64,000 nucleotides of DNA from an uncultured Sphingopyxis sp. (GTDB lineage: Bacteria; Pseudomonadota; Alphaproteobacteria; Sphingomonadales; Sphingomonadaceae): positions 50,928 to 114,927 of the forward strand of contig CALMYE010000303.1 in assembly GCA_937873425.1 (NCBI GenBank), given 5' to 3'. The notes beneath the pieces were generated by a model that saw only the letters and a program-made list of their open reading frames with translations, was not told the DNA's origin and ran no database searches. The stretch's first letter is position 1, and each line of letters starts with the position of its first letter. Position numbers and translations under genes: made by a program. Positions 3,677 through 53,463 of this stretch are shown piece by piece.

Positions 3677-5432
3677 CTTGCGGCGATGCTCTGCACCAAG
3701 CCTCGACGTCGCACAGGCGGAGAATTCGTCCCATATCATTCACGCCAAATGTCAGGTCGTCCTTCAGCTGCTGTTCGATCATGCTGCGATCAAGAATACC
3801 CGCGCCGCTGAGTAGTCCGTCCATCAGCATTTCGCGAATGAGAACTCGTCGCTCGCGCAGCATCTGCAATTGAAACTGGCCGAGGCCTCCTTTTGAGATC
3901 CGCCATGCGACTTTGGCGGGAAGATCCCGCTCCATGGCTCGGCGGGCTATGTAACGACTTCGCCCCCGGCCGACCCAAAGCCAAGTCGGTATGCGTAGGC
4001 AAGTCTCGACAAGGGGCTGCGACAATAGGGGAAATATCCCCTTCATCAAATCGGAGCGCCGATAACCATTCATGTTATAGCAGCTGTTGTATAGTCCATG
4101 AACATGTTCAACCTTTCCGGGAAGCGGTCGGTTTTTTGGCGGAGGCCACGGCAGCCCAGGTGGCGATTCATTGGATGGAAGATCTTTGGAAAGAAATGCA
4201 TCATTCGCGCGCCAGTTGGCGTGGTGCTTGCCTTTCCATCCCTTCCTGATCGCCTTCCAGCCGAGATCCCACGCGTTGCACTGATTTGCACGCGCCACCT
4301 CAAAGACGGTTCGTGCAAAATTTGGACTCGGACCTTTCGCTCGAAGGGTGTCCGCCGCGGGTCCGGAACTCTGCAGATGGCAGAATACGGCGTCGCCGCC
4401 CTGACCGTTGACAAATGTGTCGATCGACCGGTCCGTTGCCATTTCGAGGGAGATGCGATCGGTTTCTTGAACAAAGGACCGCGAGTGGGGTCGGGGCAAG
4501 TGCGGCCGCGCCGAATGAAGAAGATCTGGTCTTCGATGATCAGGCGCACCCTCGTCCAGGGAGATATGTAAGTGGCTGGCTACGCTTCTTGCAAAATTCC
4601 TCTCGTCCCCATCGTTTCCTTCGCTGAACATCGTGATCGCGTGAATTTCACGCCCAGCAGTGGCGGACCCCGCCGCGATTATCGACGAATCCAAGCCCCC
4701 TGAAAGATCGAGGGCGTAAAACCGTCCGCGCGGCATCTGCGCTCCGATGCAGCGAAGAATTTCCCGGCGAACAAGTTCCATGGCTTCATCTGGATCGGTG
4801 ATCAGGACGTCGGGATTGGTGAACTTCCAAGGGTCCCAGTGAAAACTGGCCTCAAGCGCCCGTGGGGCTTCAAACTTGATCGATTCTCCACACCTGATCT
4901 CGGAAACTCCGGAGAGGCATGTGGATGACATGCTGAGATTATCCCAAATCAGATGTCTGGCGACTGATTCCCAGTTTATCGACGGCGGGCGCCTTGCCAT
5001 TTCCAGCAATAGCCTTGTGTCCGAGGCAACAACGAGGACTCCGCCCTCGACTATGTAATAGGCATTGATGCTACAGAATGGGGATCGTTCGCAGGTGATC
5101 ACGCCGTTGGGCAAACTGGCCAGGACGATATAGGAACCCCAATATTCATTGTTCAAATGGCCGCCTCGATACGCCGCCGTGACACGCGCCCCTTCGTCGA
5201 TGTTCTTTCCAAATGCGCGCGACGGGACATGCCGGCAGAAGACGTCGCCAACGACGACGCCAGTGCCATCGGTGAGGTGGTTGATTTCCAACCCGCTGTC
5301 GGAATAGACAACAAGGCGTTCGTCACGATGGGTCACGCTCAGCCCCGACTGATGAGCTATTTCATCCAAATGTAGGTCGAGGGCGCATGGGACCTGGGTC
5401 GGCGAGCTGACGGCTAAGAATCTGCCGATCAT
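3654..5432 (-). CDS. Lasso peptide cyclase (asparagine synthetase-like C protein)
   Basis: DLSGGLDSS PP-loop and GQGGDAVF motifs; ATGA overlap with B gene. Confidence 0.93.
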   Translation of the reverse strand: MIGRFLAVSSPTQVPCALDLHLDEIAHQSGLSVTHRDERLVVYSDSGLEINHLTDGTGVVVGDVFCRHVPSRAFGKNIDEGARVTAAYRGGHLNNEYWGSYIVLASLPNGVITCERSPFCSINAYYIVEGGVLVVASDTRLLLEMARRPPSINWESVARHLIWDNLSMSSTCLSGVSEIRCGESIKFEAPRALEASFHWDPWKFTNPDVLITDPDEAMELVRREILRCIGAQMPRGRFYALDLSGGLDSSIIAAGSATAGREIHAITMFSEGNDGDERNFARSVASHLHISLDEGAPDHRRPDLLHSARPHLPRPHSRSFVQETDRISLEMATDRSIDTFVNGQGGDAVFCHLQSSGPAADTLRAKGPSPNFARTVFEVARANQCNAWDLGWKAIRKGWKGKHHANWRANDAFLSKDLPSNESPPGLPWPPPKNRPLPGKVEHVHGLYNSCYNMNGYRRSDLMKGIFPLLSQPLVETCLRIPTWLWVGRGRSRYIARRAMERDLPAKVAWRISKGGLGQFQLQMLRERRVLIREMLMDGLLSGAGILDRSMIEQQLKDDLTFGVNDMGRILRLCDVEAWCRASPQVTLNTAP

Positions 5433-37961: not shown

Positions 37962-38302
37962 TCCGGTGCAGGCGCGATTGCCGCTCGACGACGTGTTCAT
38001 CGCGCTGAAGGACGTGATCCCACACCTGACACGCTCGTCGCTGCACCGTTGCCTGCAACGCCACGGGATCAGTCGGTTGCCCAAAGCCGATCGGGAGAAG
38101 CCGAAGAAGTTCAAGAAATATGAGATTGGCTACTTCCACGTCGATATCGCGGAACTGCGCTATGAAGGCGGAAGAGGCTTCCTCTATGTCGAAGTGGACC
38201 GCACCTCGAAGCTGGTGTTCGCCCGCATCTATCGCCGGGCGACCAAGCTTGCCGCGGCAGCGTTCCTGCGCGTGCTTATCAAGACGGTGCCATACAGGAT
38301 CC
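37962..38302 (+). mobile_element. IS481-family fragment, left part (5' deleted, interrupted by IS66)
   Basis: VQARLPLDD...TVPYRI, closely similar to the intact copy at 48090-49037. Confidence 0.88.
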
Positions 38303-39554: not shown

Positions 39555-42143
39555 GTAAGCGCTAATTTACCCCCACATTTTCGAATGTTCTGAGATCGTT
39601 ATGTTGCGCGCCTTCTGTATCGGGAGCGTAACTAGCGATGGGCGATGTAACGACGTTCGAAAGTAGCTTCGAAAGCAACGGGAACGGTCGTGCTCGCCCG
39701 ATGGAGGTGATCCCGGCGGGTCGCGAGCGTCGGCAGTGGACGCCGGAAGCGAAGGCCCGGATCATCGCCGAGAGTATGGCGCCGCGGGCGAACGTCGCGG
39801 ATATCGCGCGCCGGAACGATATCCTGCCGCAGCAGCTCTACGCCTGGCGCCGGGAAGCGCGCGAACGGATGGAATCGGACGACGCGCCGGCCTTCGTTCC
39901 GGCAATGGTCGAGGAGCCGAAGGCGCAGGGCAGCGGCGCCGAGATCCGCATCAACATCAAGGGCATGACGATCCGCATTCCCGACGGCGTGACTGCCGAC
40001 CATATCGAGCGGGTGCTGCTCGCGGTGCAGGTGTCGACATGATCATCCCGCCGGGACCACTCAAAGTGCTGGTGGCGGTGAAGCCGGTCGACTTCCGCAA
40101 GGGAATGGTGGGCCTGGCGTCGCTCGTGCAGCACGAGCTGAACCGCGACCCCTTCTCCGGAATCATGTTCGTGTTCCGCCGCAAGCGCGCCGATCGGATC
40201 AAGCTGCTGCTATGGGACGGGACCGGCCTGGTGCTGGTGACGAAGCGGCTCGAGACGGGCACGTTCCGCTGGCCGCGCTTCGGCGACGGGGTGATGAGCC
40301 TTACCGCGGCGCAGGCTTCGGCGCTGATCGAAGGGCTCGACTGGGCGCGTGTTCATGCCCCGCGTGTGGCGCGTCCGGTGATGGCGTTATAGGCCGTGAA
40401 AATGACTCGTCTTGCCGCACAAAACGGGCAGAAAACCGCGAAATAATGTATCCATCCGCACCATGAGCGAGGGGGTGGAAGAGCTGCCCGACGACGTCGA
40501 GGCACTAAAGGCGATGATCATCGCCGAACGGCTCCGCTCCGCCCGGCTCCAGCACCTTCTTGATGTCCTCAATCGCATGCACTTCGGCAAGCGGTCGGAG
40601 AAGATCGACAGCGGCCAGCTCGCGCTGGCGCTCGAAGATCGCGACGTATCGATGGCCGAAGCCGAACTGCTGGTCGAACAGGGCGAGGAAGCCACCGGCA
40701 TCGCGCCGCCGCGGCGCAAGCGTGCGGCGGACGAACCCGCGCCTCGCTGCCGGCGCATCTTCCGCGTCACGAGATCGAGATCGCGCCGGAGGCCGGCTGC
40801 TGCGCGGGCTGCGGCGGTGCGCTGCACCGGATCGGCGAGGATCGGTCCGAACGACTCGACATCATCCCCGCCCAATATCGCGTCATCGTGACGGTGCGGC
40901 CGAGGATGGTGTGCCGATCGTGCGGCGATAGCGTCGCGCAGGCGAAGGCTCCCGCGCATGTGGTGCCGGGCGGCCTGCCGAGGGAAGCGCTGCTCGCCGA
41001 TATCCTCGTCAAGAAATACGCTGATCACCTTCCGCTCTACCGGCAGGCGCAGATGTTGGCGCGCCAGGGCGTGACGATCGATCGCGCGACGCTCGCGGGC
41101 TGGGTCGGCCGCGCGGCGGGCTATCTGAAGCCGATCGTCGACCGGCAGAAGGCGGAGCTTCTGAAGAGCGATCGCCTGTTCGTCGACGAGACCACCGCGA
41201 TGGTGCTGGCGCCGAGCAGCGGCAAGACGAAGACGGGCTACCTGTGGGCGATGGTCCGCGACGACCGCCCGCATGGCGGGGTCGATCCACCCGCGATCGT
41301 TTACAGCTACATGCCGGGCCGGGGCGGCATGTGGGCGGCGAAGCTCCTCGGCGAGTATCACGGCATCCTGCAGGTCGATGGCTATGAAGCCTATGGCCAG
41401 TTCGGCAAGGCGGGACGTCCCGGCGGACCCTCGGTGCTGGCCTATTGCTGGGCGCATGTTCGCCGCGGCTTCTTCGACGCCGGCGGCAAGGGCGATGGCG
41501 CGCCGATCGCCACCGAAGCGCTGCACCGGATCGGGCTGCTCTACAACATCGAGCGCGAGATCCACGGTCGCACGCCCGAGGAGCGCCTTGCCGTCCGCTA
41601 GGCGCGGTCCAGCCCGATCGTCGACGAGCTGCATGACTGGCTCGACGCCAAGCGCCGGCGCATGTTCAGCGGCTCGCCGACCCTCAAGGCGATCAACTAT
41701 GCACTGAGCCACTGGGCCGGGCTCGTCCGGTTCCTCGACGATGGCCGGATCGACATCGACAACAACCCGGTGGAGCGGTCGATGCGGCCGATCGCACTCC
41801 AACGGAAAAATGCGTTGTTCGCGGGCCACGAACTGGGCGCCGAGAACTGGGCGGCGATCGCGTCGCTGATCGAGACCTGCAAGCTGGGTGCGATCAACCC
41901 CGCCGCCTACCTGGCCGACGTCCTTGCCCGCATCGTCACCCGCGGCGACGGCGAGCCCATCGATGACCTGCTACCTGGGAACTGGGTCGATACAAAGGCC
42001 GCCGAAATGACGTTCGAAACGAGTGCCACCGCCAACGCCGCCTGAGCAAAGCACGATCGAAATTAGATACAACGAAATTAGGCGCCAGCTTCTAATCGAA
42101 GCCCGCGCCCGTCCGCCCCGCGTGGGGGAAAATTATCACTTAC
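39555..42143 (+). mobile_element. IS66-family element (2589 bp), tnpC inactivated
   Basis: IRs GTAAGCGCTAATTTACCCCCAC / GTAAGTGATAATTTTCCCCCAC; 8-bp duplication CAGGATCC (38295-38302, 42144-42151); tnpA 39638-40042, tnpB 40039-40392. Confidence 0.95.
40463..42045 (+). pseudogene. tnpC: IS66 transposase TnpC pseudogene
   Basis: Frameshift near 40735 and in-frame TAG at 41599-41601. Confidence 0.88.
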
Positions 42144-42532
42144 CAGGATCCACACCATCCTGACAGATAACGGCGTACAGTTCGTGCAGCGGGACCAAGG
42201 CGGCCCACTGGGATGGATCGGCCATATCTTCGGCCGTGTCTGCGAGCAGAACGGCATCGAGCATCGCCTCACCAAGCCCTATCACCCATGGACCAACGGC
42301 CAGGCCGAACGGATGGTGCGCACCATCAAGGAGGCCACCGTCAAATCCTTCCATTACACGTCGATCAATGAACTGCGCCGCCATGTCCGCGACTGGCTCG
42401 TCGCTTACAACTTCGCCAAGCAGTTGAAGGCTCTGCGCTTCAAGACAACCTACGAGGCCATCGAAGAGCTCCGGAAATCCAAGCCAGATATCTTCAATAT
42501 GAAACCACTCCATCACATGCTGGGACTAAACA
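42144..42532 (+). mobile_element. IS481-family fragment, right part with intact right IR
   Basis: IHTILTDNG...HMLGLNT; ends CCATCACATGCTGGGACTAAACA. Confidence 0.9.
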
Positions 42533-42686
42533 CCTAACAGTCCACGCGGACCACTCGGTGGGGGCCGGTCAGATTCGAGGGGCAGGAGCCAATGTGCCTC
42601 CCATATCGCTCGCGCGAGACGCAAGTTTCCGCAGTGCGCACGCCGGACGTATCTCACACCCATTCCTCGCCCAAGACTGCAATTGG

Positions 42687-42745
42687 CGCATGAAATCGGC
42701 GTCGGAGGGCCTGCTACTGGCCCTCCGACGCCGCGATTTTCATGC
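42687..42745. terminator. Long hairpin downstream of the TonB receptor
   Basis: CGCATGAAATCGGCGTCGGAGGGCC-N7-GGCCCTCCGACGCCGCGATTTCATGCG (2-nt bulge). Confidence 0.55.
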
Positions 42746-42783
42746 GGTATAATTTTTCCCGATCGATTGGGACAGCTAAAGCA

Positions 42784-45720
42784 TTAGAATTTTGCGCCGA
42801 TCGCGACACCATAACGCCGCGGATCAAGCGTGTAGATATTTGTAAAATTACCGGAAGATGCATCGGTGACATAAAGTCCGGTAACTGAGTTGCTATCGAA
42901 GATATTCTGAACGAACCCCCGGACAAACCAGCGCTCGTCGGCACCATTCAACTGCAAAACTGCATTAGCCTGTACGAAAGGTTGGATGCGATTAATTCTG
43001 CCGTTGAAGATATTGCCATATTGCTTTCCGGTCATGGAAATGTCGACGCGGGGGACGAGTGTCATACCATTCCCGACCTCTGCCGTGTACTGCACGCCCA
43101 TCGAGACCTTGACATTCGGCGCTTGCGGCAATGTGTTGCCCTTGATGTTAACCTCGACGCCAGGACTCAATACCTGGATCCCGCTGTTCGCAGGGATAGC
43201 GCTCGCGAGGACACCGCAAATGCCGAACGCGCCGCTGGAGGCGATATTGCCGTCCGAAGGAAATTCCTGCGGTGCGCGAAGGCCGAGAGCCGCATTTACG
43301 CCCGCAACGAACGCATCAGCAACGCCAGGCGCAGGTCCCGTGACAGCGCAGTGCGCACCATTGCTGATGTCCTTGATAATCACGGCATCAGGATCCCCGC
43401 CGCCCGGATCACGCGGATTGGAGAAGAATTGATCGCCGGCGACCTTGGCATTGAGATAGCTGAAGGACAGATTGATAAGCCAGTTCGGGTCCGGCCTGAT
43501 GACAGACTCCAGTTCGACACCCCAGATATTGGCGTCAACCGTGTCATTCACGGACGTTCTTGCCACGATGCGGCTGAGCTGCAGTCCACTATATTTGTAG
43601 TAAAATGCGGTGGCATTGAGTTGTAACGCGCCGTTTGCGAAGACGTTCTTGGAGCCGATCTCGAAGGCATCGATCGTTTCAGAGCCGAAACTCTCGCTGA
43701 CGGCGAAAATCGGAGAAAGCGGAGGATTGATCCCGCCGGATTTGTAACCCCTAGAATAAGATGCATAGAGTGAATTGTCCGGCGTAACCTCGAAGGCCAG
43801 AACTGCTCGTCCGGTAATTTCGTCGAAGCTTACTTCGCGAAACTGGGCGAGCTGTTGGCCCGGCGTCCCCGGGTCGGCATCGAAAAGCCCAGACGGCCCG
43901 GTGAGGGGCGTTATCGGGGTATCGAACGGATCTCCATCATTGGCATAAGGGTTCAGGAAACTGATCAGCGTCGTACGCGCCGTCACATCCTTCTTGTCAT
44001 TATTGTAACGCAGCCCCCCGGTCAACGTCAGCCGGTCGCTTAGATCGAAATAGACCTCGCCGAAAATGCCATAGCTCTCTAGATTCGATTCCAGCGAGTT
44101 GTTCCGATACATCGACGTCGCGAAATAGGATGGCGGAAGGCCGCCCGACAAGGAGCCGAATGAACCCAATACGGCACTGGCGTAATCGAGCGCAAACGAG
44201 TTCACATAATAGCTATTGTCGGTGGTTTTCGATTTCGCGTAAATTCCGCCCAACAGGAAATTGAACGGCCCGTCGAAGTCACTCGTGAGGATGAGCTCTC
44301 CGCTCCACGATTCGCGTTGTTCCGAAGATCGATCGAAAGAAAGCGGCGTTTCGGAACACAGCGAGTTCCCTTCGAAAGCGCCTCTGCTTCCATCATCATT
44401 ATCCGACGTGCACAGCACGCCCTGCGGACCGTCCGGGATTAGAGCGCCGGCAATCGGCGAAAAATAGGCCGAAGAGCCGGGAATGAAGGCTGGCGCCGGC
44501 GGAGCAAGACCTGTCGGTAATCCGTTAGCCGCAAAAAAGTCCAACGTATTGAGCGCCGGGGCGAAACCGGCACGGCTTTGAATTCCAAGAAAATAGTCCT
44601 GCCTGGAATCGACTTCAGTATCCTGATAAATGCCGGTGGCCGTCAGGGTCATCGCGCCGAATTTTTGCTCAAGGCGCGCCTGCACCTGTAGCTCTTCGGC
44701 AAAATAGAAAGGGGTATAGGCCGTGTTGACGACACGCACATCGCCAGGCTCCTGAAACCCGGAAAACCCATCAGGGCCATAAAGGCTGCCGAGGCCGAGC
44801 ACGGCGGGAATGCCCTGAATGGCGAAGAACTCGGATGAACTGAGCGTCGCACCGACCGTTGAATTTGCGTTCGTGGTATCGAAATCACGTCGATTGTTCA
44901 GGCATCCGAGCACGCCCAATGGATCGCGTTGGCACGTTTGTTTCTGGTTTCTGAGGCGCGTGTCCTTTTCCCGGAAATAATAGCCCATGAGATCGATCGT
45001 CGTATCAGGACCGGGTTCGAAACGAAGGGAGCCTCGCAACGCATAGAGGTCCCGAGCGTCGATGTCCGATCCATCATAGAGATTCGTCGTATAACCGTCG
45101 CGGTTCACATATATGCCCGCCAGCCTCACGCCGATCATATCCCCGATCGGGACGTTGACCATGCCACGCGCTTCGATGCTGTTGAAATTGCCATACTCGA
45201 ATTGCGCTTCAGCCTCGAAACGGGAGAGTTTGGGTTTCGCGGTCACAACATTCACGACCCCGGAGGTCGCATTCCGGCCGAACAGGGTGCCTTGAGGTCC
45301 GCGAAGGACTTCAATCCTTTCCAGATCGAAATATTCGGTCTCGAACAGGCGTGTTCCGAACAAGGGGGATCCATTGACATGGATTGCGGTCGCAGCATCG
45401 CAGGTGACGCCGACGCACAGGTCGCCAACGCCGCGAATAGTGAATGAAGCTGAGGTGAAATTGCCTTTCGAGAAAGATACATTGGGCAGCGTCAGCTGTA
45501 GATCCGAGGCATTTTCGATCTGCTGGCTTTCAAGCGCCTCAGCGCTGAATGCGCTGACAGCGATCGGTACGTCTTGCAAGCTTTGCGCCTGACGTTGCGC
45601 TGTCACGACGATGACATTGTCACCGCCATCTGGCTCTTCGGCTATGACTTCCTGAGCATTTGAGACCTGTGGCAACGCCATCACGACGGCGCTTGCCAAC
45701 CAATAGGCTTTCTTATTCAT
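42784..45720 (-). CDS. TonB-dependent receptor
   Basis: Signal peptide, TonB box IVVTAQRQAQSLQDVP, plug EVLRGPQGTLFGRNA, terminal Phe. Confidence 0.93.
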   Translation of the reverse strand: MNKKAYWLASAVVMALPQVSNAQEVIAEEPDGGDNVIVVTAQRQAQSLQDVPIAVSAFSAEALESQQIENASDLQLTLPNVSFSKGNFTSASFTIRGVGDLCVGVTCDAATAIHVNGSPLFGTRLFETEYFDLERIEVLRGPQGTLFGRNATSGVVNVVTAKPKLSRFEAEAQFEYGNFNSIEARGMVNVPIGDMIGVRLAGIYVNRDGYTTNLYDGSDIDARDLYALRGSLRFEPGPDTTIDLMGYYFREKDTRLRNQKQTCQRDPLGVLGCLNNRRDFDTTNANSTVGATLSSSEFFAIQGIPAVLGLGSLYGPDGFSGFQEPGDVRVVNTAYTPFYFAEELQVQARLEQKFGAMTLTATGIYQDTEVDSRQDYFLGIQSRAGFAPALNTLDFFAANGLPTGLAPPAPAFIPGSSAYFSPIAGALIPDGPQGVLCTSDNDDGSRGAFEGNSLCSETPLSFDRSSEQRESWSGELILTSDFDGPFNFLLGGIYAKSKTTDNSYYVNSFALDYASAVLGSFGSLSGGLPPSYFATSMYRNNSLESNLESYGIFGEVYFDLSDRLTLTGGLRYNNDKKDVTARTTLISFLNPYANDGDPFDTPITPLTGPSGLFDADPGTPGQQLAQFREVSFDEITGRAVLAFEVTPDNSLYASYSRGYKSGGINPPLSPIFAVSESFGSETIDAFEIGSKNVFANGALQLNATAFYYKYSGLQLSRIVARTSVNDTVDANIWGVELESVIRPDPNWLINLSFSYLNAKVAGDQFFSNPRDPGGGDPDAVIIKDISNGAHCAVTGPAPGVADAFVAGVNAALGLRAPQEFPSDGNIASSGAFGICGVLASAIPANSGIQVLSPGVEVNIKGNTLPQAPNVKVSMGVQYTAEVGNGMTLVPRVDISMTGKQYGNIFNGRINRIQPFVQANAVLQLNGADERWFVRGFVQNIFDSNSVTGLYVTDASSGNFTNIYTLDPRRYGVAIGAKF

Positions 45721-46407
45721 CACCCTATCTCTCCCTGTCTCGATTTTTTCGTTTCTTGCGCGAACCCGTCCTTGTCCCCGATTGTCGATGTTCAAAAATG
45801 GGGCAGCTCGCCGAGCTGCCCCGAGTTTGAGGAGTGGCCAGAAGGAGATTTCCGGAGAGGAAAAGATTCTCGCCGCTCGGCTGGAAGATGAGCAGTTTTT
45901 CGGCATTTGGTAAAGAACTTTATTATGGCACTTTATTATTTTGCTCGGGGCGGTGGGAGGTGTGCCATCTCAGATCCGAAGATATCAGTTTATACATCCG
46001 ATGCTTGCTGTCAGCGCTTCAGCCTTGGCGCGGTCGAGCGCGCGCCGACGACTTTTGGATGCGGCTGCGGTACGGCATGCCCGATCCGGAGCGCATGACC
46101 CGCGTGGTCGAAAGTTGGATAGCAGTGCAAAAGGCCGGGCTCTGATCCCGGCTGGTGGAAACCAGGGGGTCAGGTCAGTTCACCTATTCCTTCCCGTTCA
46201 TTTTAGAGTCATCAAGATCGTATTAACCACGTCACGGTCCCTGCCGGGCAGGGCTTTCACGTGGGGGCATCCATGACCAGAACCAAACCATCCCTTAAGT
46301 CAGCTATCCTGTTGGCCAAATAGGATCAAGGCGACCGGCGCACCAATTTACCTCGTGACTGAGCCATGTGCGCGCGAAAACCGTCACCACTTCGATGGGG
46401 ATTCGAC

Positions 46408-47730
46408 ATGACATTGCCATTTCACATGCCGTCCACAATCCGCCTTTCGGGTGTAGGTCTTGCCGCTTGTGCGATTGCCACGATTGCTGCCGCAAGTGCG
46501 CAGGCGCTACCACTATCCAGCTTCAAGGATCAGGGCGTCGACCATATCTTTGGCAGCTACGCCCCGCGCGGCGACTGCTCAAAGGAACCGCGCGTAACCA
46601 TCGATGAAAAGGGCATGACGTTCCGCGCCAATGGTCGGGAAATAAAGCCCCCTCGGGTGGAATATGCTCTCACCTTCATGGGCCAGAGCTATGACGGCAT
46701 CATGGCAGTATTTTTTCCCTTTCCAGTTAGCAGCAATGATTTTGGTCGGGTTCTCATGTATGTGAACGACGACGAGAAGCGCGGTGTCATCCGCTTTGAA
46801 TCCGATCTGCCGCGCGGCCAACGCCCGGCTTCTTTCCATGCGGCCTTCACGGGTGGCGGCCCGTTCACGCTCTGCCAGGGCAGCGCTCTTGCTGGCACGC
46901 CACTGCCGCCACGGCCTGAGCCGGCGGTGGCCGTGCAAGGCATTCCAGCGGAATGGACCAATCTCGCCAGCCTCGTCGGCAAATATCCGGGAAGCTACGC
47001 CAAGGACAATATCGACCTGTTCGATAAGGGTACCTTGGCTGCGGCATTGAAGGCCCGGATGGGGCCGAAGATGGCTGCGCTGCGGACCAATCTCTCAGCC
47101 GTCTCGCCATTGCAGCGGGCTGGGAACTATTACTATCTTTCCGGCAATGCGCAGCATCAGGGCGGTGTGGAGCAGGCCTATATAATAATAGACCCGGCGC
47201 GCCGTGCGGTGCAGGTGGGCCTTTGGGAGCGCGGCAAGCTAACAGTTTATCCGTCTGCTTCGGGCGTTAGGCTGCCGATTGCGCCGGAAATCAAGACGCT
47301 GTTGGACAAAAGCCCGCCCGAAACGGCAGTGCCGCTTCCCGGTACACCCTGGGAAGTTGTACCGGTGCAAGGTCGCGCGCCCATGGCTTATGTGAGCGCC
47401 GCGGCATCGCCCAACATCGAAGCCCTCAGTCTCTATTGTGAAGGCGGAAAGCCCTACATGGCGATGCTGCTCAACAAGCCCTCCGCCGACAATGCGATGA
47501 CGATGACGTGGAACTTCTCCGGTCGGCTCGTTAGCATATCCGTTCAGCGCGCCAATGCGAACGGCACTCAATGGATCGGCGGCGTGACGGGCACGCAACT
47601 TGTTCCCCTGCTCATGCAGCAAAGCGGGACGGTGATGCTACGTATCAACGGGCGGCTGGAAGGCGAAGCCTCGCTCAGCAATTCAATTGCAGTGCTGCGC
47701 GATACCCTGCGGGGATGCGTGCGGCTCTGA
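46408..47730 (+). CDS. Secreted three-domain hypothetical protein
   Basis: Signal peptide; three segments separated by Pro-rich linkers; Cys pairs in first and last domains. Confidence 0.75.
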   Translation: MTLPFHMPSTIRLSGVGLAACAIATIAAASAQALPLSSFKDQGVDHIFGSYAPRGDCSKEPRVTIDEKGMTFRANGREIKPPRVEYALTFMGQSYDGIMAVFFPFPVSSNDFGRVLMYVNDDEKRGVIRFESDLPRGQRPASFHAAFTGGGPFTLCQGSALAGTPLPPRPEPAVAVQGIPAEWTNLASLVGKYPGSYAKDNIDLFDKGTLAAALKARMGPKMAALRTNLSAVSPLQRAGNYYYLSGNAQHQGGVEQAYIIIDPARRAVQVGLWERGKLTVYPSASGVRLPIAPEIKTLLDKSPPETAVPLPGTPWEVVPVQGRAPMAYVSAAASPNIEALSLYCEGGKPYMAMLLNKPSADNAMTMTWNFSGRLVSISVQRANANGTQWIGGVTGTQLVPLLMQQSGTVMLRINGRLEGEASLSNSIAVLRDTLRGCVRL

Positions 47731-47912
47731 CCTGTGAGAACGGCGCCGCCTCCATTTCAGGTGCTCTGCCACCTGAATTCTGGACCAGTTGCGGTTAGAG
47801 TTTTCCGCCGTAGATATCATTGGCTGGGCGAGGAGTTAGAGCGGGATGACATTTGGCTGATTCAAAGGGGATTCTTTTTTGGGCGGTTTTCTGATTCATA
47901 TGTGGACGCCCC

Positions 47913-48029
47913 CTATGGCAAGGGCTTTGTGGTCGCGATGGCTTTGATCGGTTGCTTTCATATGTCCGGCCTGTTTGTGCGGCGTTTTGAGTGCCGCTGG
48001 CCTTGATGGAAATCCGCCGGTGAGGTCCC
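47913..48029 (-). ncRNA. 3' (donor-binding) half of putative IS1111 bridge/seekRNA
   Basis: Contains CATCA and ACATATGA matching the element's left and right ends; joins 49886-49999 when IS5/IS481 are removed. Confidence 0.6.
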
Positions 48030-48033
48030 TAGG

Positions 48034-49032
48034 TGTTTAGTCCCAGCATGTGATGGTGTAAATTTGACCTCATCACAGCGGAGGGAGTTATGGGCCAGGT
48101 TCTCCACGGCAGCGCCAAGACCACGCACATCGTTCGAGGCGAGCTACAGCGATCGCAAGCTTCGGTCGCGCACCTTGCGAAGCGATACGGGATCAACGAG
48201 AAGACCGTCTTGAAGTGGCGCAAGCGGCAGTCGGTCGAAGACCTGCCGATGGGGCCAAGGGAGCGCCGCAGCACCGTCCTCTCGCCCATGGAAGAAGCCG
48301 CCATTGTGGCGCTGCGCGTACAGGCGAGGCTTCCGTTGGACGATGTCTACATCGCGCTGAAGGATGTCATCCCGCATCTGACGCGGTCGTCGCTGCATCG
48401 CTGCCTACAGCGGCATGGGATCAGCCGGCTGCCCAAAGCGGATCGCGAGAAGCCCAAGAAATTCAAGGCCTACGAGATCGGCTATTTCCACATCGATATC
48501 GCCGAACTGCGTCACGAAGGCGGCAAGGCTTTCCTCTATGTCGCTGTGGATCGCACATCAAAGCTGGTCTTCGCCCGCATTTATCGCAGGGCGACCAAGA
48601 TGGTGGCAGCCGGCTTCCTCAAATCGCTGATCCGTACAGTACCCTATAAAATCCACACCGTGCTGACTGATAATGGCGTACAGTTCGCTCAGTTCGAGCG
48701 TGGCTCTGGCCTCATCTTCCCGCATATCTTCGGTCGTGTTGCCCATGAGAATGGCATCGAGCATCGGCTGACCAAGCCCTACCATCCCTGGACCAACGGC
48801 CAAGCCGAGCGCATGGTGCGGACCATCAAGGAAGCGACTGTCAAATCCTTCCATTATGCGTCCATCACCGAACTGCGGCGGCACGTTCGCGACTGGCTGA
48901 TAGCTTACAACTTCGCCAAGCAGCTCAAGGCTCTCAGGTTCAAAACCCCATATGAGGCCATTGAGGAACTCTGGAAATCAAAGCCAGACATCTTTATCGT
49001 CGAGCCACACCATCACATGCTGGGACTAAACA
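48034..49032 (+). mobile_element. Intact IS481-family element (999 bp)
   Basis: Perfect 26-bp TGT...ACA IRs; CCTAGG duplication; transposase 48090-49037. Confidence 0.95.
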
Positions 49033-49036
49033 CCTA

Positions 49037-49885
49037 GGCCGCGTTGACAAAAGACTTCAGCCATAGCCGCGTGGCGGCGAGGTTTAGGAAGCTCTCGAAC
49101 GAGAGAAGGGTTTTGTCATATCGAGTGGCGATGCGTCGTTGCTGTTTGAGCTTTCCGAACATGCGCTCGACGCGGTTGCGGTCCTTGTAACGGCGATAGT
49201 CGGGATGCTCTGGCACCTTGCGGTTCGAGCGGGGCGGGATGATCGGCAGGATGCCCCGGGTCAGCAGGCTTTCCCGGAAGCGATCACCATCATAGCCCTT
49301 GTCCGCGAGCAGCGCCTTGGGTGTGGCGACGGGGATCGCCATCAGCGGTTCGGCAGCGGTGTAATCAGAAGCCTCGCCGCCGGTCAGGATGAAGCCGACA
49401 GGCAGTCCTTGATTGTCGCAGCGGGCGTGGATTTTGCTCGTAAAGCCGCCGCGTGATCGACCAAGAGCGTTCGCACAAGCCCCCCTTTTCCGCCCGCTGC
49501 CGAAACATGGCCGCGAACGCTGGTGCTGTCGATCATATGTTGCCAGTCGTCGGTCAGACCCAGATCGACCAGCGTTTGCAGCAGGGCATCCCAGACACCC
49601 TGTTCGGCCCAGCGCCGGAAGCGGACATAGACCGAGTTCCACTTGCCGTAGCGCTCGTGCATGTCGCGCCAAGGGCAGCCGACCCGCAGCACGTGAAGCA
49701 TGCCGTTGAGAAAGCGACGATTATCGCCCGACGGCCGCGCCCAGCGACCACGTTCAGGCGGCAGCAGCGGCCCAATCAGGTCCCACTCCGCATCCGACAA
49801 ATCCCCGCGACCCATGACTGATCCTCAAAAAGCAGTCTTGAATCAGAAGGAGGAGGATTTGGGAATCCCTTTTGTCAACACGGCC
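49037..49885 (-). mobile_element. IS5-family element (849 bp, IS427-like, two frames)
   Basis: IRs GGCCGYGTTGACAAAAG; TA duplication; orfA from 49815 and orfB to 49034 joined at a GAAAAGGGGG slip site. Confidence 0.92.
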
Positions 49886-49999
49886 TAATCAAGTTGGCGC
49901 GCGGTTGAAGCGCATTGAATCAGACGGGTTGGTTTCACCATTGGCTCGATCGTTACTCATCATTGACTGCCACTGCCAATTCGGTTGTTCGGTATTCTG
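49886..49999 (-). ncRNA. 5' (target-binding) half of putative IS1111 bridge/seekRNA
   Basis: Contains TCTGATTCAA (10/10 to reconstructed target) and AACTTGA (6/7). Confidence 0.6.
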
Positions 50000-51022
50000 T
50001 TAGGTCGTCAGTTGATAGGGCCCATAGGCTTCCTTCCGGGTCAGCACGACCCAGGCGATCCGGGCCAACTTGTTGGCAAGCGCCACGGAGACGACCCTGA
50101 ACGGCTTTTTCTCCGAGAGTTTCCTGATCCAGTCGGCCATGGGCGTTGGCTTATCCTTGATGTGGCGCATGACGGCGGTGGCGCCGACGACGAGCAGTCG
50201 GCGCAGATATCGGTCTCCCTGCTTCGAGATGCCACCCAACCTGGTCTTGCCGCCGGTGGAGTGCTGCTGCGGAGTTAGGCCGAGCCAGGCGGCGAATTGC
50301 CTTCCCGACCGGAACTGATCGGGATCGGTGACGATAGCAGCGATCGCGGTTGCCGTGATCACGCCGAGCCCCGGGATCGCGGCGAGCCTGCGAGAGGCCT
50401 CGCTCTCGGCATGCCAGGCCGCGAGTTGCTGGTCGAGCACCGCAATCTGGCTACTGACGCCCATGATCTGACGGATCAGTATCTCTACGGCCGCGCTTGC
50501 ATAGGATGGAAAAGCATCTTTGTTGGCCAGCACCTGGTCGGTCAGCTTTGCAAGGTTGGCAATGCCGGGGTTAGTGACGAAGCCCAGTTCCGCCAGATGC
50601 GCGCGCAGGGCATTGGCGAGCATAGTGCGCTGGCGCACGAGCAGGGACCGGGCGCGATGGGTCATGAGGATGGCCTGCTGCTCGACTGTCTTGACGGGCA
50701 CGAACCGCATCGTCGGACGCTGCACGGCTTCGCAGATCGCTTCGGCATCGAGGGCGTCGCTCTTGCCGCGCTTCACATAGGCCTTCACGTAGGATGGTGG
50801 GATCAAGCGAACCTCGTGTCCCATCTCGGCGAGCGTGCGTGCCCAGTAATGTGCCGTTCCGCACGCCTCAATGCCAATCAGGCATGGCGACAGCTTCGAA
50901 AAGAACGGCAGCATCTGCTTGCGGTGCAGCTTCTTCACCAGCACCGTGGCGCCGTTCTCATCGACGCCGTGCGCCTGGAAAACGCTCTTCGCCAGATCCA
51001 GTCCTATCGTCGCAATCCTCAT
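50000..51022 (-). CDS. IS110-family DEDD recombinase/transposase
   Basis: IGLDLAK, IEAC, KSDALDAEAI; C-terminal WLGLTPQQHSTGGK with catalytic Ser. Confidence 0.95.
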   Translation of the reverse strand: MRIATIGLDLAKSVFQAHGVDENGATVLVKKLHRKQMLPFFSKLSPCLIGIEACGTAHYWARTLAEMGHEVRLIPPSYVKAYVKRGKSDALDAEAICEAVQRPTMRFVPVKTVEQQAILMTHRARSLLVRQRTMLANALRAHLAELGFVTNPGIANLAKLTDQVLANKDAFPSYASAAVEILIRQIMGVSSQIAVLDQQLAAWHAESEASRRLAAIPGLGVITATAIAAIVTDPDQFRSGRQFAAWLGLTPQQHSTGGKTRLGGISKQGDRYLRRLLVVGATAVMRHIKDKPTPMADWIRKLSEKKPFRVVSVALANKLARIAWVVLTRKEAYGPYQLTT

Positions 51023-51135
51023 CGTGAACGCTCCTCTTTCTGTTCGGGTGACCGACTCGCAGCATAGCGGCTGCGGACCGGTGCAGGGGCGTCCACATCA
51101 TCAAGCTTTGTGCTGGGATTGGAGGCCAGCAAATC

Positions 51136-52078
51136 ATGTCCAGACCCATATCGACGGATTTACGCGAGCGGCTGGTTTTGGCGGTTTTGCGGGAGGGGAT
51201 TTCGGCCCGGGCTGCTGCGGCGCGCTTTGGTGTTTCGGTCAGCAGCGCGATTGTGTGGGTCCGTCGGCACCGTGAGACGGGGAGCGTGGCACCGGGCAAG
51301 ATCGGCGGTTACAAGCCCAACATTCTGTCGGGCGCGCATGGCGACTGGCTGGTCGAGCGAGCCAAGTCAGATTTCACCTTGCGCGGACTGGTTGCCGAAC
51401 TGGCCGAACGCGGGGTCAGGGTCGACTATGTGCAGGTCTGGCGCTTCGTCCATGCGCGGGGGCTGAGCTTCAAAAAAAAGCGTTCTTCCCGCCGAACAGC
51501 TGCGCCCCAAGATCGCAAGGCGGCGCGCGCAGTGGCGCAAGTATCAGGGGCGGCTTGATCCCCGGCATCTCGTCTTCATCGACGAGACCTGGGCCAAGAC
51601 CAACATGGCCCCGCTCAGGGGCTGGGCGCCCAAGGGCCAGCGGCTGCACGCCAAGGTGCCCTATGGCCATTGGCGCACCATGACCTTCATCGCCGCGCTG
51701 CGCTGCGACCGGATCGATGCACCGTGCGTCCTCGATCAGCCGATCAACGGGGCCACCTTTGCCAAATGGGTCGAGCAGTTCCTCGTGCCCACCCTCGCAC
51801 CGGGCGACGTCGTCATCATGGACAACCTCTCCAGCCACAAACGTCCAGCTATCCGCCAGGCCATCCGTGCCGCCAAGGCCAAGTTGCTCTACCTGCCACC
51901 ATATTCGCCCGACCTGAACCCGATCGAGCAGATGTTCTCGAAGCTCAAACACCTGCTGCGAAAGGCCTCCGAGCGAACCGCTGAAAACACCTGGCGACGC
52001 ATCGGATCATTGCTCGATGCCTTCAGCCCACAAGAGTGTGCCAACTACTTCGCCAACTCCGGATATGCATCAACCTAA
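51136..52078 (+). CDS. IS630 transposase (two ORFs joined by frameshift at A8G 51472-51480)
   Basis: HTH orfA; orfB DETWAK, MDNLSSH, LPPYSPDLNPIEQ. Confidence 0.9.
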
Positions 52079-52093
52079 TGTCATCCCGGTCTA

Positions 52094-52976
52094 ATGTGCG
52101 CTGGCGGCCCGCGCGTAACGAACAGCTCGGCCAGGGCCGCAAGCACGTCGTCGCTCTTGAGCTTGCGCGCGACCGGCAACGCCAGGCACTCCCGGCTCGC
52201 CTCGTCGATGATCGACAGGATCCGGTATTTGCGGCCATCGTGGGTGCGACCCTCGACGAAGTCGTAGGACCAGACATGCCCAGGATACTCGGGCCGAAGC
52301 CGGATGCATGATCCGTCGTTCAGCCACAATCGCCCGCGCTTCGGTTGCCTTTGCGGCACCTTGAGCCCCTCGCGTCGCCAGATGCGCTCGACCCGCTTGC
52401 GGTTCACATGCCACCCCGCGTCGCGCAGCAACGCAGTCACCCGGCGATAGCCATAACGACCATATTGCCGCGCCAGCGCGATGATATCCTCGGTAAGAGC
52501 CGCTTCGTCATCTGCTCCGCGGGGCGCCTTGCGCTGTGTCGACCGGTGCTGCCCAAGCACACGGCACAGCCGCCGCTCGGACACCGGCATCATCATTCTG
52601 ATGTGGTCGATACAGCGCCTTCGGCGCGCGGGGCTCAGAAGTTTCCCCGAGCAGCTTCCTGCAGGATCAGTTTGTCCAGCGTCAGGTCAGAGATCGCACG
52701 ACGAAGCCGCGCATTCTCTTTCTCCAGGTCCTTCATTCGCCGCGCCTGATCGGTCTTCAGGCCGCCATATTCCTTGCGCCACCGATAATAGGTCTGCTCG
52801 CTGACCGCGATCCGGCGACACGCTTCTGCGGTCGTCGCACCCTGCGCCAGAACAACCTCCGCTTCACGCAGCTTGCCGATAATCTCTTCCGGGTGATGCT
52901 TCTTGCTCGGCATTCATAATCTCCTTCGAAATCCAAAATATCATCAATTTTGGACCACTCAGAAGGAGGCAGATCA
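52094..52976 (-). mobile_element. IS3-family (IS407-like) element truncated by IS630
   Basis: Left end TGATCTGCC at 52976; orfA 52635-52913; orfB ends abruptly at RGPPAHI. Confidence 0.88.
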
Positions 52977-53133
52977 AAGGCTGGACTGTGCGCTGGTAGT
53001 TGAACGCCTCCGGCGACCGGATCGCCTTCCGGACCACCTTGCGCGATAACCGAAGATCACGGGCGATCACCTTGATCGCCTTGCCAGACGCATGCTCACG
53101 CCGAATCCGAACCACTGTCTCCACTACGAACAT
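52977..53133 (-). pseudogene. IS21-family IstA N-terminal fragment
   Basis: GKAIKVIARDLRLSRKVVRKAIRS HTH cut by the IS407-like end. Confidence 0.75.
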
Positions 53134-53214
53134 CCCGTTCTCGCCAACTAATCAAACCAGTCAGCCGCCTAAATCCTCGGGATGAAGGGTCCTATTGCAC
53201 GCTGATCCTCAGCC

Positions 53215-53463
53215 TTGGCCGAAACGATCAATGGCCTTTACAAGGCGGAGGTGATCCACCGGCGAGGTCCGTGGCGATCCTTTGAAGCTGTCGAATATGC
53301 CACGCTCGAATGGGTCGACTGGTTCAACAACAGGCGGCTGCTCAAGCCTATCGGAAACATCCCGCCCGCTGAAGCCGAAGAACGATATGACGCCATGCTG
53401 GACGACATCGCCATGGCTGCGTAACTTATGCCAAATGGCCTCCGGCAGTCCCGCGGCGCTTCA
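53215..53463 (+). mobile_element. IS3-family 3' fragment with right end
   Basis: AETINGLYKAEVIHRRGPW...WFNNRRLLKPIGNIPPAEAE; terminal CA. Confidence 0.85.

Follow-up and report, generated by a model that had tools for sequence, protein, structure and literature searches.

Do four insertion sequences (ISs) of different families, stacked at one place, form a unit that can move as a whole, or do they record a series of insertions, one after another? This question is raised by a stretch of 64,000 nucleotides (the window) from an uncultured Sphingopyxis sp. (contig CALMYE010000303.1), in which an IS630-family element, an IS1111-group element, an IS5-family element of the IS427 type, and an IS481-family element are stacked at 47837-52093, the outer element spanning about 4.25 kb. 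An original prediction for this locus held that the outer inverted repeats could move the 4.25-kb composite and so spread four IS types at once. The evidence presented here makes it very probable that the nest is an in-place stack of four successive insertions, a decaying fossil rather than a working composite transposon. The features are listed below, with coordinates in the window, strand, and the evidence used (NCR, non-coding region; ORF, open reading frame).

47837-47838, no strand: TA target copy, left of the IS630 element (direct reading; the relative in genome G086 also has TA on both sides)
47839-47898, plus: left tip of IS630, the first 60 nt, with the left inverted repeat at 47839-47853 (GAGCGGGATGACATT) and the start of the leader (inverted repeat, collinearity with G086)
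47899-48029, minus: IS1111 distal 3' NCR and right end, with a subterminal repeat (47900-47912), donor-matching segments, and the 3' strand of the target-loop stem (97.6% identity to the copy on plasmid pRW412a; NCR alignment and RNAalifold)
48028-48033, no strand: CCTAGG, left copy of the IS481 duplication (single CCTAGG in G017, G032, and G026)
48034-49032, plus: IS481-family element, 999 bp, with 25-bp perfect terminal repeats (ORF, Pfam, NCBIfam, repeats)
49033-49038, no strand: CCTAGG, right copy of the IS481 duplication (direct reading, empty sites, repeats)
49037-49885, minus: IS427-type IS5 element, 849 bp, intact (100% identical multicopy relatives, NCBIfam, repeats)
49886-49887, no strand: TA, right copy of the IS5 target duplication (uninterrupted CCCTAATCAAG in pRW412a and in metagenome contig L124)
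49888-49999, minus: IS1111 proximal 3' NCR, 5' half of the guide RNA (NCR alignment, RNAalifold)
50000-51022, minus: IS1111-group DEDD transposase gene, 340 aa, complete (Pfam, NCBIfam)
51023-51103, minus: IS1111 left end, with a subterminal repeat at 51086-51098 and the core TCA at 51101-51103 (repeats, site comparison)
51104-52091, plus: IS630 body, with the rest of the leader (AG...GGAGG), ORF1, a run of eight A (A8), ORF2, and the right inverted repeat at 52077-52091 (profiles, conservation, G086)
52092-52093, no strand: TA target copy, right of IS630 (direct reading, G086)

The nest has eight junctions, and the boundaries found here agree almost to the single base with those of the original prediction. 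It contains four transposase genes (ORF listing and direct reading), each of which spans the profile of its own family end to end in Pfam and NCBIfam, two of them by way of frameshifts, and a repeat finder returned four inverted-repeat pairs in the nested order expected. After removal of the inserts, the net sizes are 1048 bp for IS630, about 1349 bp (±3) for IS1111, 849 bp for IS5, and 999 bp for IS481.

The outer element is made up of 47839-47898 and 51104-52091. Its inverted repeats (47836-64/52066-94 in the repeat finder) include 15-bp terminal repeats that match at 14 of 15 positions, and these repeats, the TA duplication on both sides, and a length within about 1.0-1.4 kb are those of the IS630 family. 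The 2 ORFs on the plus strand (51136-51558 and 51479-52078) cover positions 2-133 and 127-298 of the 299 of NCBIfam profile NF033545, with a DDE_3 domain (PF13358, 4.7e-33) and an N-terminal HTH_23 domain in Pfam. They meet at the A8 run (51472-51479), after which ORF2 continues in the +1 frame; since this arrangement is kept in 5 diverged IS630 lineages (65-93% identical), we read the shift as programmed. Deletion of one A yields FKKSVLPAEQ, matching a relative with an in-frame A7. Use of frameshifts is established in both the IS5 and IS630 families, with transcriptional realignment in an IS630 member (PMC5009743). The slippery run varies in length among copies, from A7 in the distant relative G035 through A8 in the window to A9 in metagenome contig L124 (99.9% identical), which is due either to homopolymer sequencing error or to real length variation at the shift site.

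The IS1111-group element extends from 47899 to 51103, and its size carries the uncertainty of 3 nt because the core TCA is repeated at both junctions (47896-47898 and 51101-51103). Its transposase contains PF01548 and PF02371, scores 352 bits over positions 1-342 of 343 of NF033542 (the NCBIfam profile for IS110 RNA-guided transposases), and includes GLTPQQHSTG, in agreement with the motif GL-P----(S/T)G by which the IS1111 group is defined (PMC11187229). As is typical of this group, the NCR is longer on the 3' side of the gene (about 250 nt) than on the 5' side (81 nt), and the 13-bp subterminal repeats (ATGTGGACGCCCC, 47900-12/51086-98) are 100% identical. An intact copy, 97.6% identical, is present on the Sphingopyxis granuli plasmid pRW412a. 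The similarity to it spans 47889-51105, and ends at these positions were rejected as boundaries: 12 bases (TTCTGATTCAAG) belong to the target, as judged from uninterrupted IS630 and IS5 leaders, and the target bases within the similar stretch read TTCTGAT[TCA]AG.

Elements of the IS427 group encode a DDE_Tnp_1 transposase in 2 ORFs with a -1 shift, are about 850 bp long, and make a short TA duplication. The IS5 element of the nest likewise has 2 ORFs with a -1 shift, 849 bp, and TA on both sides. Its orfA (49384-49815, minus strand) overlaps orfB (49034-49672, minus strand), which lies in the -1 frame and runs down to 49034, and GGA AAA GGG at 49483-49491 is a candidate slip site. The NCBIfam profile IS5_3 (NF033580) is covered across both ORFs (2-109 and 91-258 of 258), Pfam finds PF13340, PF01609, and PF13586, and the inverted repeats (49035-53/49869-87) are 95% identical. 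The element is 100% identical to actively multiplied, multicopy IS5 elements in 5 sister genomes (G003, G006, G017, G026, and G032); this identity and the profile coverage across both ORFs are why we take the shift as programmed.

IS481-type elements prefer NCTAGN targets, and the innermost arrival has the rve-type transposase, length of about 1 kb, terminal repeats, and 6-bp NCTAGN duplication of this family. Its ORF (48090-49037, plus strand) scores 272 bits against a cut-off of 224 over positions 6-284 of 284 (NF033577), and the terminal repeats together with the palindromic duplication form a perfect 32-nt pair (48028-59/49007-38). A Sphingobium plasmid (H19) carries a 93% identical relative. 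The transposase ORFs of IS481 and IS5 lack an inherent stop codon: each continues through its terminal repeat and ends at the TAG that the CTAG-type target provides (49034-49038). Two further fragments, about 80% identical to this IS481 element, lie upstream in the window (37966-38247 and 42148-42536).

In which order did these elements arrive? Empty sites for the 3 inner layers were found elsewhere. In genome G086, an IS630 without interruption, flanked by TA on both sides, matches the entire 1052-nt reconstruction at 92% identity; it reads TTTTTCTGATTCAAGCTTC across the IS1111 position, with TTCTGATTCAAG intact. More distant relatives keep TGATTCAA at the corresponding place in their leaders, and the last bases of the left tip in the window, TTCTGATTCA, form the left half of the IS1111 target. 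The IS5 site is uninterrupted in pRW412a and L124, both of which read GGTCCCTAATCAAG with the TA intact, and G017, G032, and G026 read GGTGAGGTCCCTAGGCCGCGTTGAC, with a single CCTAGG and without IS481. The make-up of this hexamer is informative: CC comes from IS1111, TA from the IS5 duplication (its left copy is 49035-49036), and GG is the IS5 tip (49037-49038). CTAG is absent from IS1111 itself (CCCTAATC), and the arrival of IS5 created it (CCCTA/GGCC). As CTAG was made by IS5, and as the stage without IS481 exists in 3 genomes, IS481 came after IS5.

Entire stages of the build-up have also been preserved. The second is represented by metagenome contig Ga0209024_1005847 (L124), which holds IS1111 within IS630, 99.9% identical to the window and without IS5 and IS481; its left flank is 45842-47836 of the window. 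The third is represented on its left side by G017, G032, and G026, genomes of the same genus, in which the left flank is followed by the IS630 tip, a piece of IS1111, and IS5, without IS481. On the right side, a 760-bp contig of Sphingopyxis sp. GW247-27LB (L092) carries the IS1111/IS5 right junction at 100% identity. This contig does not reach the outer flank, and an IS3-type element lies in its IS1111 transposase gene near 50351; the IS3-type end, which abuts the position of window 50351, is 90% identical to window 52829-52978, giving another variant of the nest. With these intermediates, the order of events is proven.

The profiles, nested repeats, empty sites, and intermediates together bear out the four-family nest and the order that had been predicted for it. 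The same is true for the predicted insertion points: IS1111 in the IS630 leader (from G086), IS5 in the IS1111 NCR with a TA duplication (from pRW412a and L124), and IS481 at the IS5 tip, with a CCTAGG duplication that includes 2 inverted-repeat bases (from G017, G032, and G026). Three of the predicted sizes (1048, 849, and 999 bp) were recovered, while the 1351 bp given for IS1111 differ from our value within the 3-nt core ambiguity. The description as a Russian doll holds in time, but IS481 lies beside an untouched IS5 rather than inside it: a complete IS5 with its own TA sits next to IS481, and since the 6-bp duplication overlaps just the first 2 IS5 bases, the last step is nested in time and not strictly in topology. 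That all 4 frames are intact is correct for IS481 and IS1111, which are single complete ORFs, and for IS630 and IS5 if the A8 and -1 shifts are programmed. Finally, damage to non-coding control parts applies to the outer 2 elements, whereas IS5 and IS481 are undamaged.

The surroundings indicate where this build-up took place. At least 7.3 kb of left flank (7.3-7.9 kb, within 40156-47836) is common to G017, G032, and G026 at 99.96-99.98% identity, and such a near-identical flank in 3 genomes of other Sphingopyxis species implies that the region is horizontally shared. Every snapshot with a flank (L124, G017, G032, and G026) sits at this same left flank, suggesting that the nest grew in situ on horizontally shared DNA. 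In the sister genomes, the nest has since eroded. Following IS5, G017, G032, and G026 (L013, L014, and L015) have 3 different sequences, each starting with TAG, and the rest of IS1111 and the whole IS630 body are lost; the sequence now adjoining IS5 in G017 is an ABC ATPase gene, of which the window's own genome has an intact version. Such changes suggest that IS5 copies recombined with one another or that IS5 mediated a deletion. These 3 genomes hold many identical IS5 copies, against one in the genome of the window, and show repeated rearrangement at one IS5 end.

A build-up in 4 steps would account for the nest, with each incoming element obeying its own target rule. An IS630-family element would first have inserted into a TA. 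IS1111, guided by an RNA encoded at its own 3' end, would then have entered CT[TGA]ATCAG in the IS630 leader, cutting off the left repeat and the promoter region from the transposase gene. The IS427-type IS5 would have followed into a TA of the IS1111 3' NCR, right after the second target-guide segment, splitting the guide RNA. Its GG tip and the TA would have formed CTAG, a preferred target of IS481-type elements, into which IS481 would have inserted with duplication of CCTAGG. IS630 and IS1111 keep complete transposase genes but would thereby be disabled in cis, and IS5 and IS481 are complete and should still be able to move on their own, the stack lying in a region where insertions presumably cost the host nothing.

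Why IS1111 landed in the leader of another IS can be addressed through its relatives. We collected 77 loci encoding related transposases, among which 48 unique insertion sites had both ends recognisable. These sites share the consensus nCT[TGA]ATCAg, and in about half of them the element has landed in an IS5- or IS630-type leader, in the stretch that leads from the repeat to the start codon. At such sites, a transposase of one of these two types is encoded in the transposase-side flank, beginning a few tens of bases away, and its protein identity to the counterparts in the window can be as low as 37-45%; the IS427-type IS5 is the type most often invaded. The remaining sites are ordinary DNA carrying TTGAATCA, such as 11 in one Hoeflea genome. 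This motif is conserved in the leaders of both IS630 and IS427-type IS5 elements, and in many Alphaproteobacteria the leaders of both host types keep GGGATTCCC and TGATTCAAG, in this order and separated by about 10-12 nt. The IS5 leader in the window carries such a target itself, un-hit (CTTGAATCAGAA, 49837-49848), about 50 nt from the interrupted IS1111 NCR.

The 3' NCR of the IS1111 subfamily is highly conserved, with compensatory changes in a stem (GGUGA/UCACC) and 2 hairpins. RNAalifold places UCUGAUUCAA and CUUGAU on the 2 strands of an internal loop of this stem, around a small hairpin. The former (49915-49924) matches one target strand and the latter (49888-49893) the other; UCUGAUUCAA comes first and CUUGAU second, and their matches overlap in the target. 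The same order and overlap of guide segments have been published for the seekRNAs of the IS1111 family (PMC11187229). In some loci, variants of the guide track those of the target: L047 combines CGUGAUUCAA with ATCACG, and L087 and L036 combine the guide CCUG with a C before the TGA core, as does L038, in which only one flanking base is visible. On this comparative evidence, the IS1111 layer appears to be RNA-guided to the TTGAATCA motif, and its insertion, the first into the IS630 element, would have been directed.

IS5 directly abuts CUUGAU, so that 1.86 kb of inserted IS now stand between the 5' half of the guide RNA, on one side, and the 3' stem strand and donor-matching part, on the other. 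This split probably cost IS1111 its mobility. It is possible, with a chance that we put slightly short of even, that this IS1111 subfamily is a habitual parasite of other ISs across Alphaproteobacteria, its guide being set to the GANTC-bearing TTGAATCA motif conserved in the leaders of 2 IS families and its insertions cutting transposase genes off from their control regions, and that IS5 in turn cut the guide of the parasite, leaving a natural split-guide knockout rescuable in trans. The shared IS630 and IS5 leaders (47856-47898 and 49837-49880; locus L113; alignment A3) carry 2 or 3 GANTC sites. GANTC is the methylation motif of CcrM, and Dam sites couple transposase expression to replication in IS10. 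By analogy, the GANTC sites in these leaders may couple transposase expression to replication as well.

Is there any sign, then, that the block travels as a unit? We found no second copy of the composite, or of any of its 4 ISs, in its own genome, and the composite was absent from 58 relatives, 400 genomes of the family, and 72,556 plasmids. A plasmid search with the whole block returned single-element matches, and no record covered over a third of it. The nest contains one IS630 only, and no second site was found in the genomes, plasmids, and metagenomes searched, the single metagenome match lying at the original position. Looking for the composite or its intermediates in other genomes had been proposed with the original prediction; it yielded intermediates but no composite at a second site, and nothing was found to support the mobility that had been claimed. 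The predicted separation of the IS630 left repeat from its transposase gene was confirmed at the same distance: this repeat and any leader promoter are now 3.2 kb away. From the IS1111 junction to the IS630 start codon, only about 32-35 nt are left, GGAGG among them. The transposase gene is thus cut off from its native promoter region, and IS630 expression has probably been lost. A scan of the whole nest for sigma-70 promoters and terminators gave none, fewer than in shuffled sequences, and is uninformative for this organism. Since the genome holds no other copy of IS1111 or IS630, neither is helped in trans.

What speaks for a mobile block carrying 4 IS families at once is that the IS630 repeats still match, that use of the conserved A8 shift would make the transposase gene complete, and that cut-and-paste elements of the IS630 superfamily generally tolerate internal cargo. 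With repeats and gene complete, movement is conceivable in principle but would need expression from some promoter. However, the block is single-copy in its genome and absent from relatives, the family sample, and plasmids; its snapshots are all at one left flank, the leader is interrupted 32-35 nt upstream of the ATG, and the IS630 body has been lost in relatives. Furthermore, no searched genome has a copy that could supply the transposase in trans, the second ORF of the closest relative (G086, 92%) being broken. We therefore regard mobility of the block as very unlikely, and composite transposition has most probably not occurred. A stack of this kind could also have arisen from conflict between elements rather than neutral accretion, the IS1111 insertion being a directed silencing of a rival IS. 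The frequency of IS5- and IS630-type leaders among the IS1111 sites would fit this idea, as would the fact that the IS5 type that later cut the guide RNA is the one most often invaded by this subfamily. Yet the other sites are ordinary DNA with TTGAATCA, the conservation of a short motif in IS leaders explains the bias, and multicopy mobile DNA is already known as a safe-haven target of the IS1111 group (IS4321/IS5075 and IS1383), all of which make deliberate silencing highly unlikely. Lastly, the source genome is a draft of 337 contigs, in which wrongly joined repeats might imitate a nest that is not one molecule. Against such an artefact, none of the 4 ISs is repeated in the genome, which leaves nothing to misjoin; rejoining the split halves restores full-length relatives exactly and with the proper duplications; and 4 of the junction types recur independently, in complete or other assemblies. 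It can be dismissed almost entirely.

The interpretation as an in-place stack of successive insertions is preferred, although several points weigh against it. For the right junctions, IS1111/IS630 and IS630/flank, the only sources are this short-read-style assembly and one metagenome contig. The guide-RNA assignment is computational, drawn from sequence and covariation, and a search of Rfam with the intact IS1111 copy gave no family or model for it. The loss of IS630 expression is argued from geometry. Finally, the right flank of IS630 is a truncated IS3 fragment in the window and a different sequence in the metagenome contig, so that at least one rearrangement flush with the IS630 end is left unexplained by our scheme.

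This right-hand junction deserves description. In L124, the flank (4398-4422) begins with TA followed by GCGCTCGCTGATG, and this 25-nt sequence had no match in the window's own genome or the 58 relatives, so that no original empty site of IS630 was found there. A rearrangement flush with the right end of IS630 has happened in one of the 2 lineages. In the window, the nest is followed by an IS3-family fragment that ends near 52978, with orfA at 52635-52913 and orfB at 52081-52596; orfB is cut at profile position 273 of 369, exactly at the IS630 end (flush at 52094). The debris extends over 52094-53430, with a weak remnant of the N-terminus of IS21 istA (52864-53133) and the C-terminal tail of an IS3 orfB (53215-53424). 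We considered a fifth layer, with IS630 nested in the right-hand IS3, but did not retain it, since the sequence to the left is something other than IS3 and L124 differs from the window on the right.

In IS-rich plasmids and endosymbionts, nested ISs are used to time insertions relative to one another; hosts tolerate insertions into other ISs, and the layering preserves their sequence. Such nests are frequent in IS-rich plasmids, and the one described here is an ordinary fossil of this kind, if an exceptionally tidy one: compared with other nests it is unusually clean, with 4 families, complete transposase genes, and intermediates in other genomes. Its value is that of a well-resolved example, in which the order of 4 events is fixed, 3 earlier or alternative stages survive elsewhere, and the target rules of 4 families are illustrated side by side (IS630 and IS5 each at a TA, IS1111 at an RNA-guided motif, and IS481 at a CTAG made by the previous insertion). 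The more interesting biology lies in the apparent RNA-guided choice of IS leaders by IS1111 and in a guide RNA severed by a natural insertion; with a complete recombinase gene and a guide RNA cut right after the target guides, the locus offers a natural test object.

Literature searches for a four-family nest or for this leader-targeting IS1111 subfamily returned general precedents only. One of them is IS1383, which is described, in the account cited in PMC11208160 (Müller et al. 2001), as inserting into the inverted repeats of IS1384 in Pseudomonas putida H. There, as here, an IS110/IS1111-type element targets the end of another IS and creates an IS within an IS. In our case, however, the target is a motif of the leader, CTTGAATCAG, which lies ahead of the start codon and outside the repeat itself; the motif is common to 2 unrelated host families (IS630 and IS427-type IS5), and the nest is 2 layers deeper. 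Similarly, IS4321 and IS5075 insert into the 38-bp repeats of transposons of the Tn21 family (Partridge and Hall 2003, as cited in PMC11208160). They share with our element the IS1111 group, subterminal repeats, one fixed position and orientation within another mobile element, and a disabled host end, but differ in target sequence and in hosts, which are enterobacterial there and alphaproteobacterial here. The likeness to the seekRNA and bridge RNA systems of IS1111 and IS110 elements (PMC11187229; PMC11208160) lies in the 3' NCR downstream of the transposase gene and in 2 short segments that match both target strands, in the published order and with overlap, within a covarying stem-loop; unlike in those systems, the RNA gene, here predicted from sequence, is split by 1.86 kb of inserted IS. 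Composite transposons such as Tn10 and Tn5, too, hold several kilobases of cargo between ends recognised by a transposase. Theirs lies between 2 flanking IS copies, whereas here it lies inside a single IS whose leader has been detached, with no evidence of movement.

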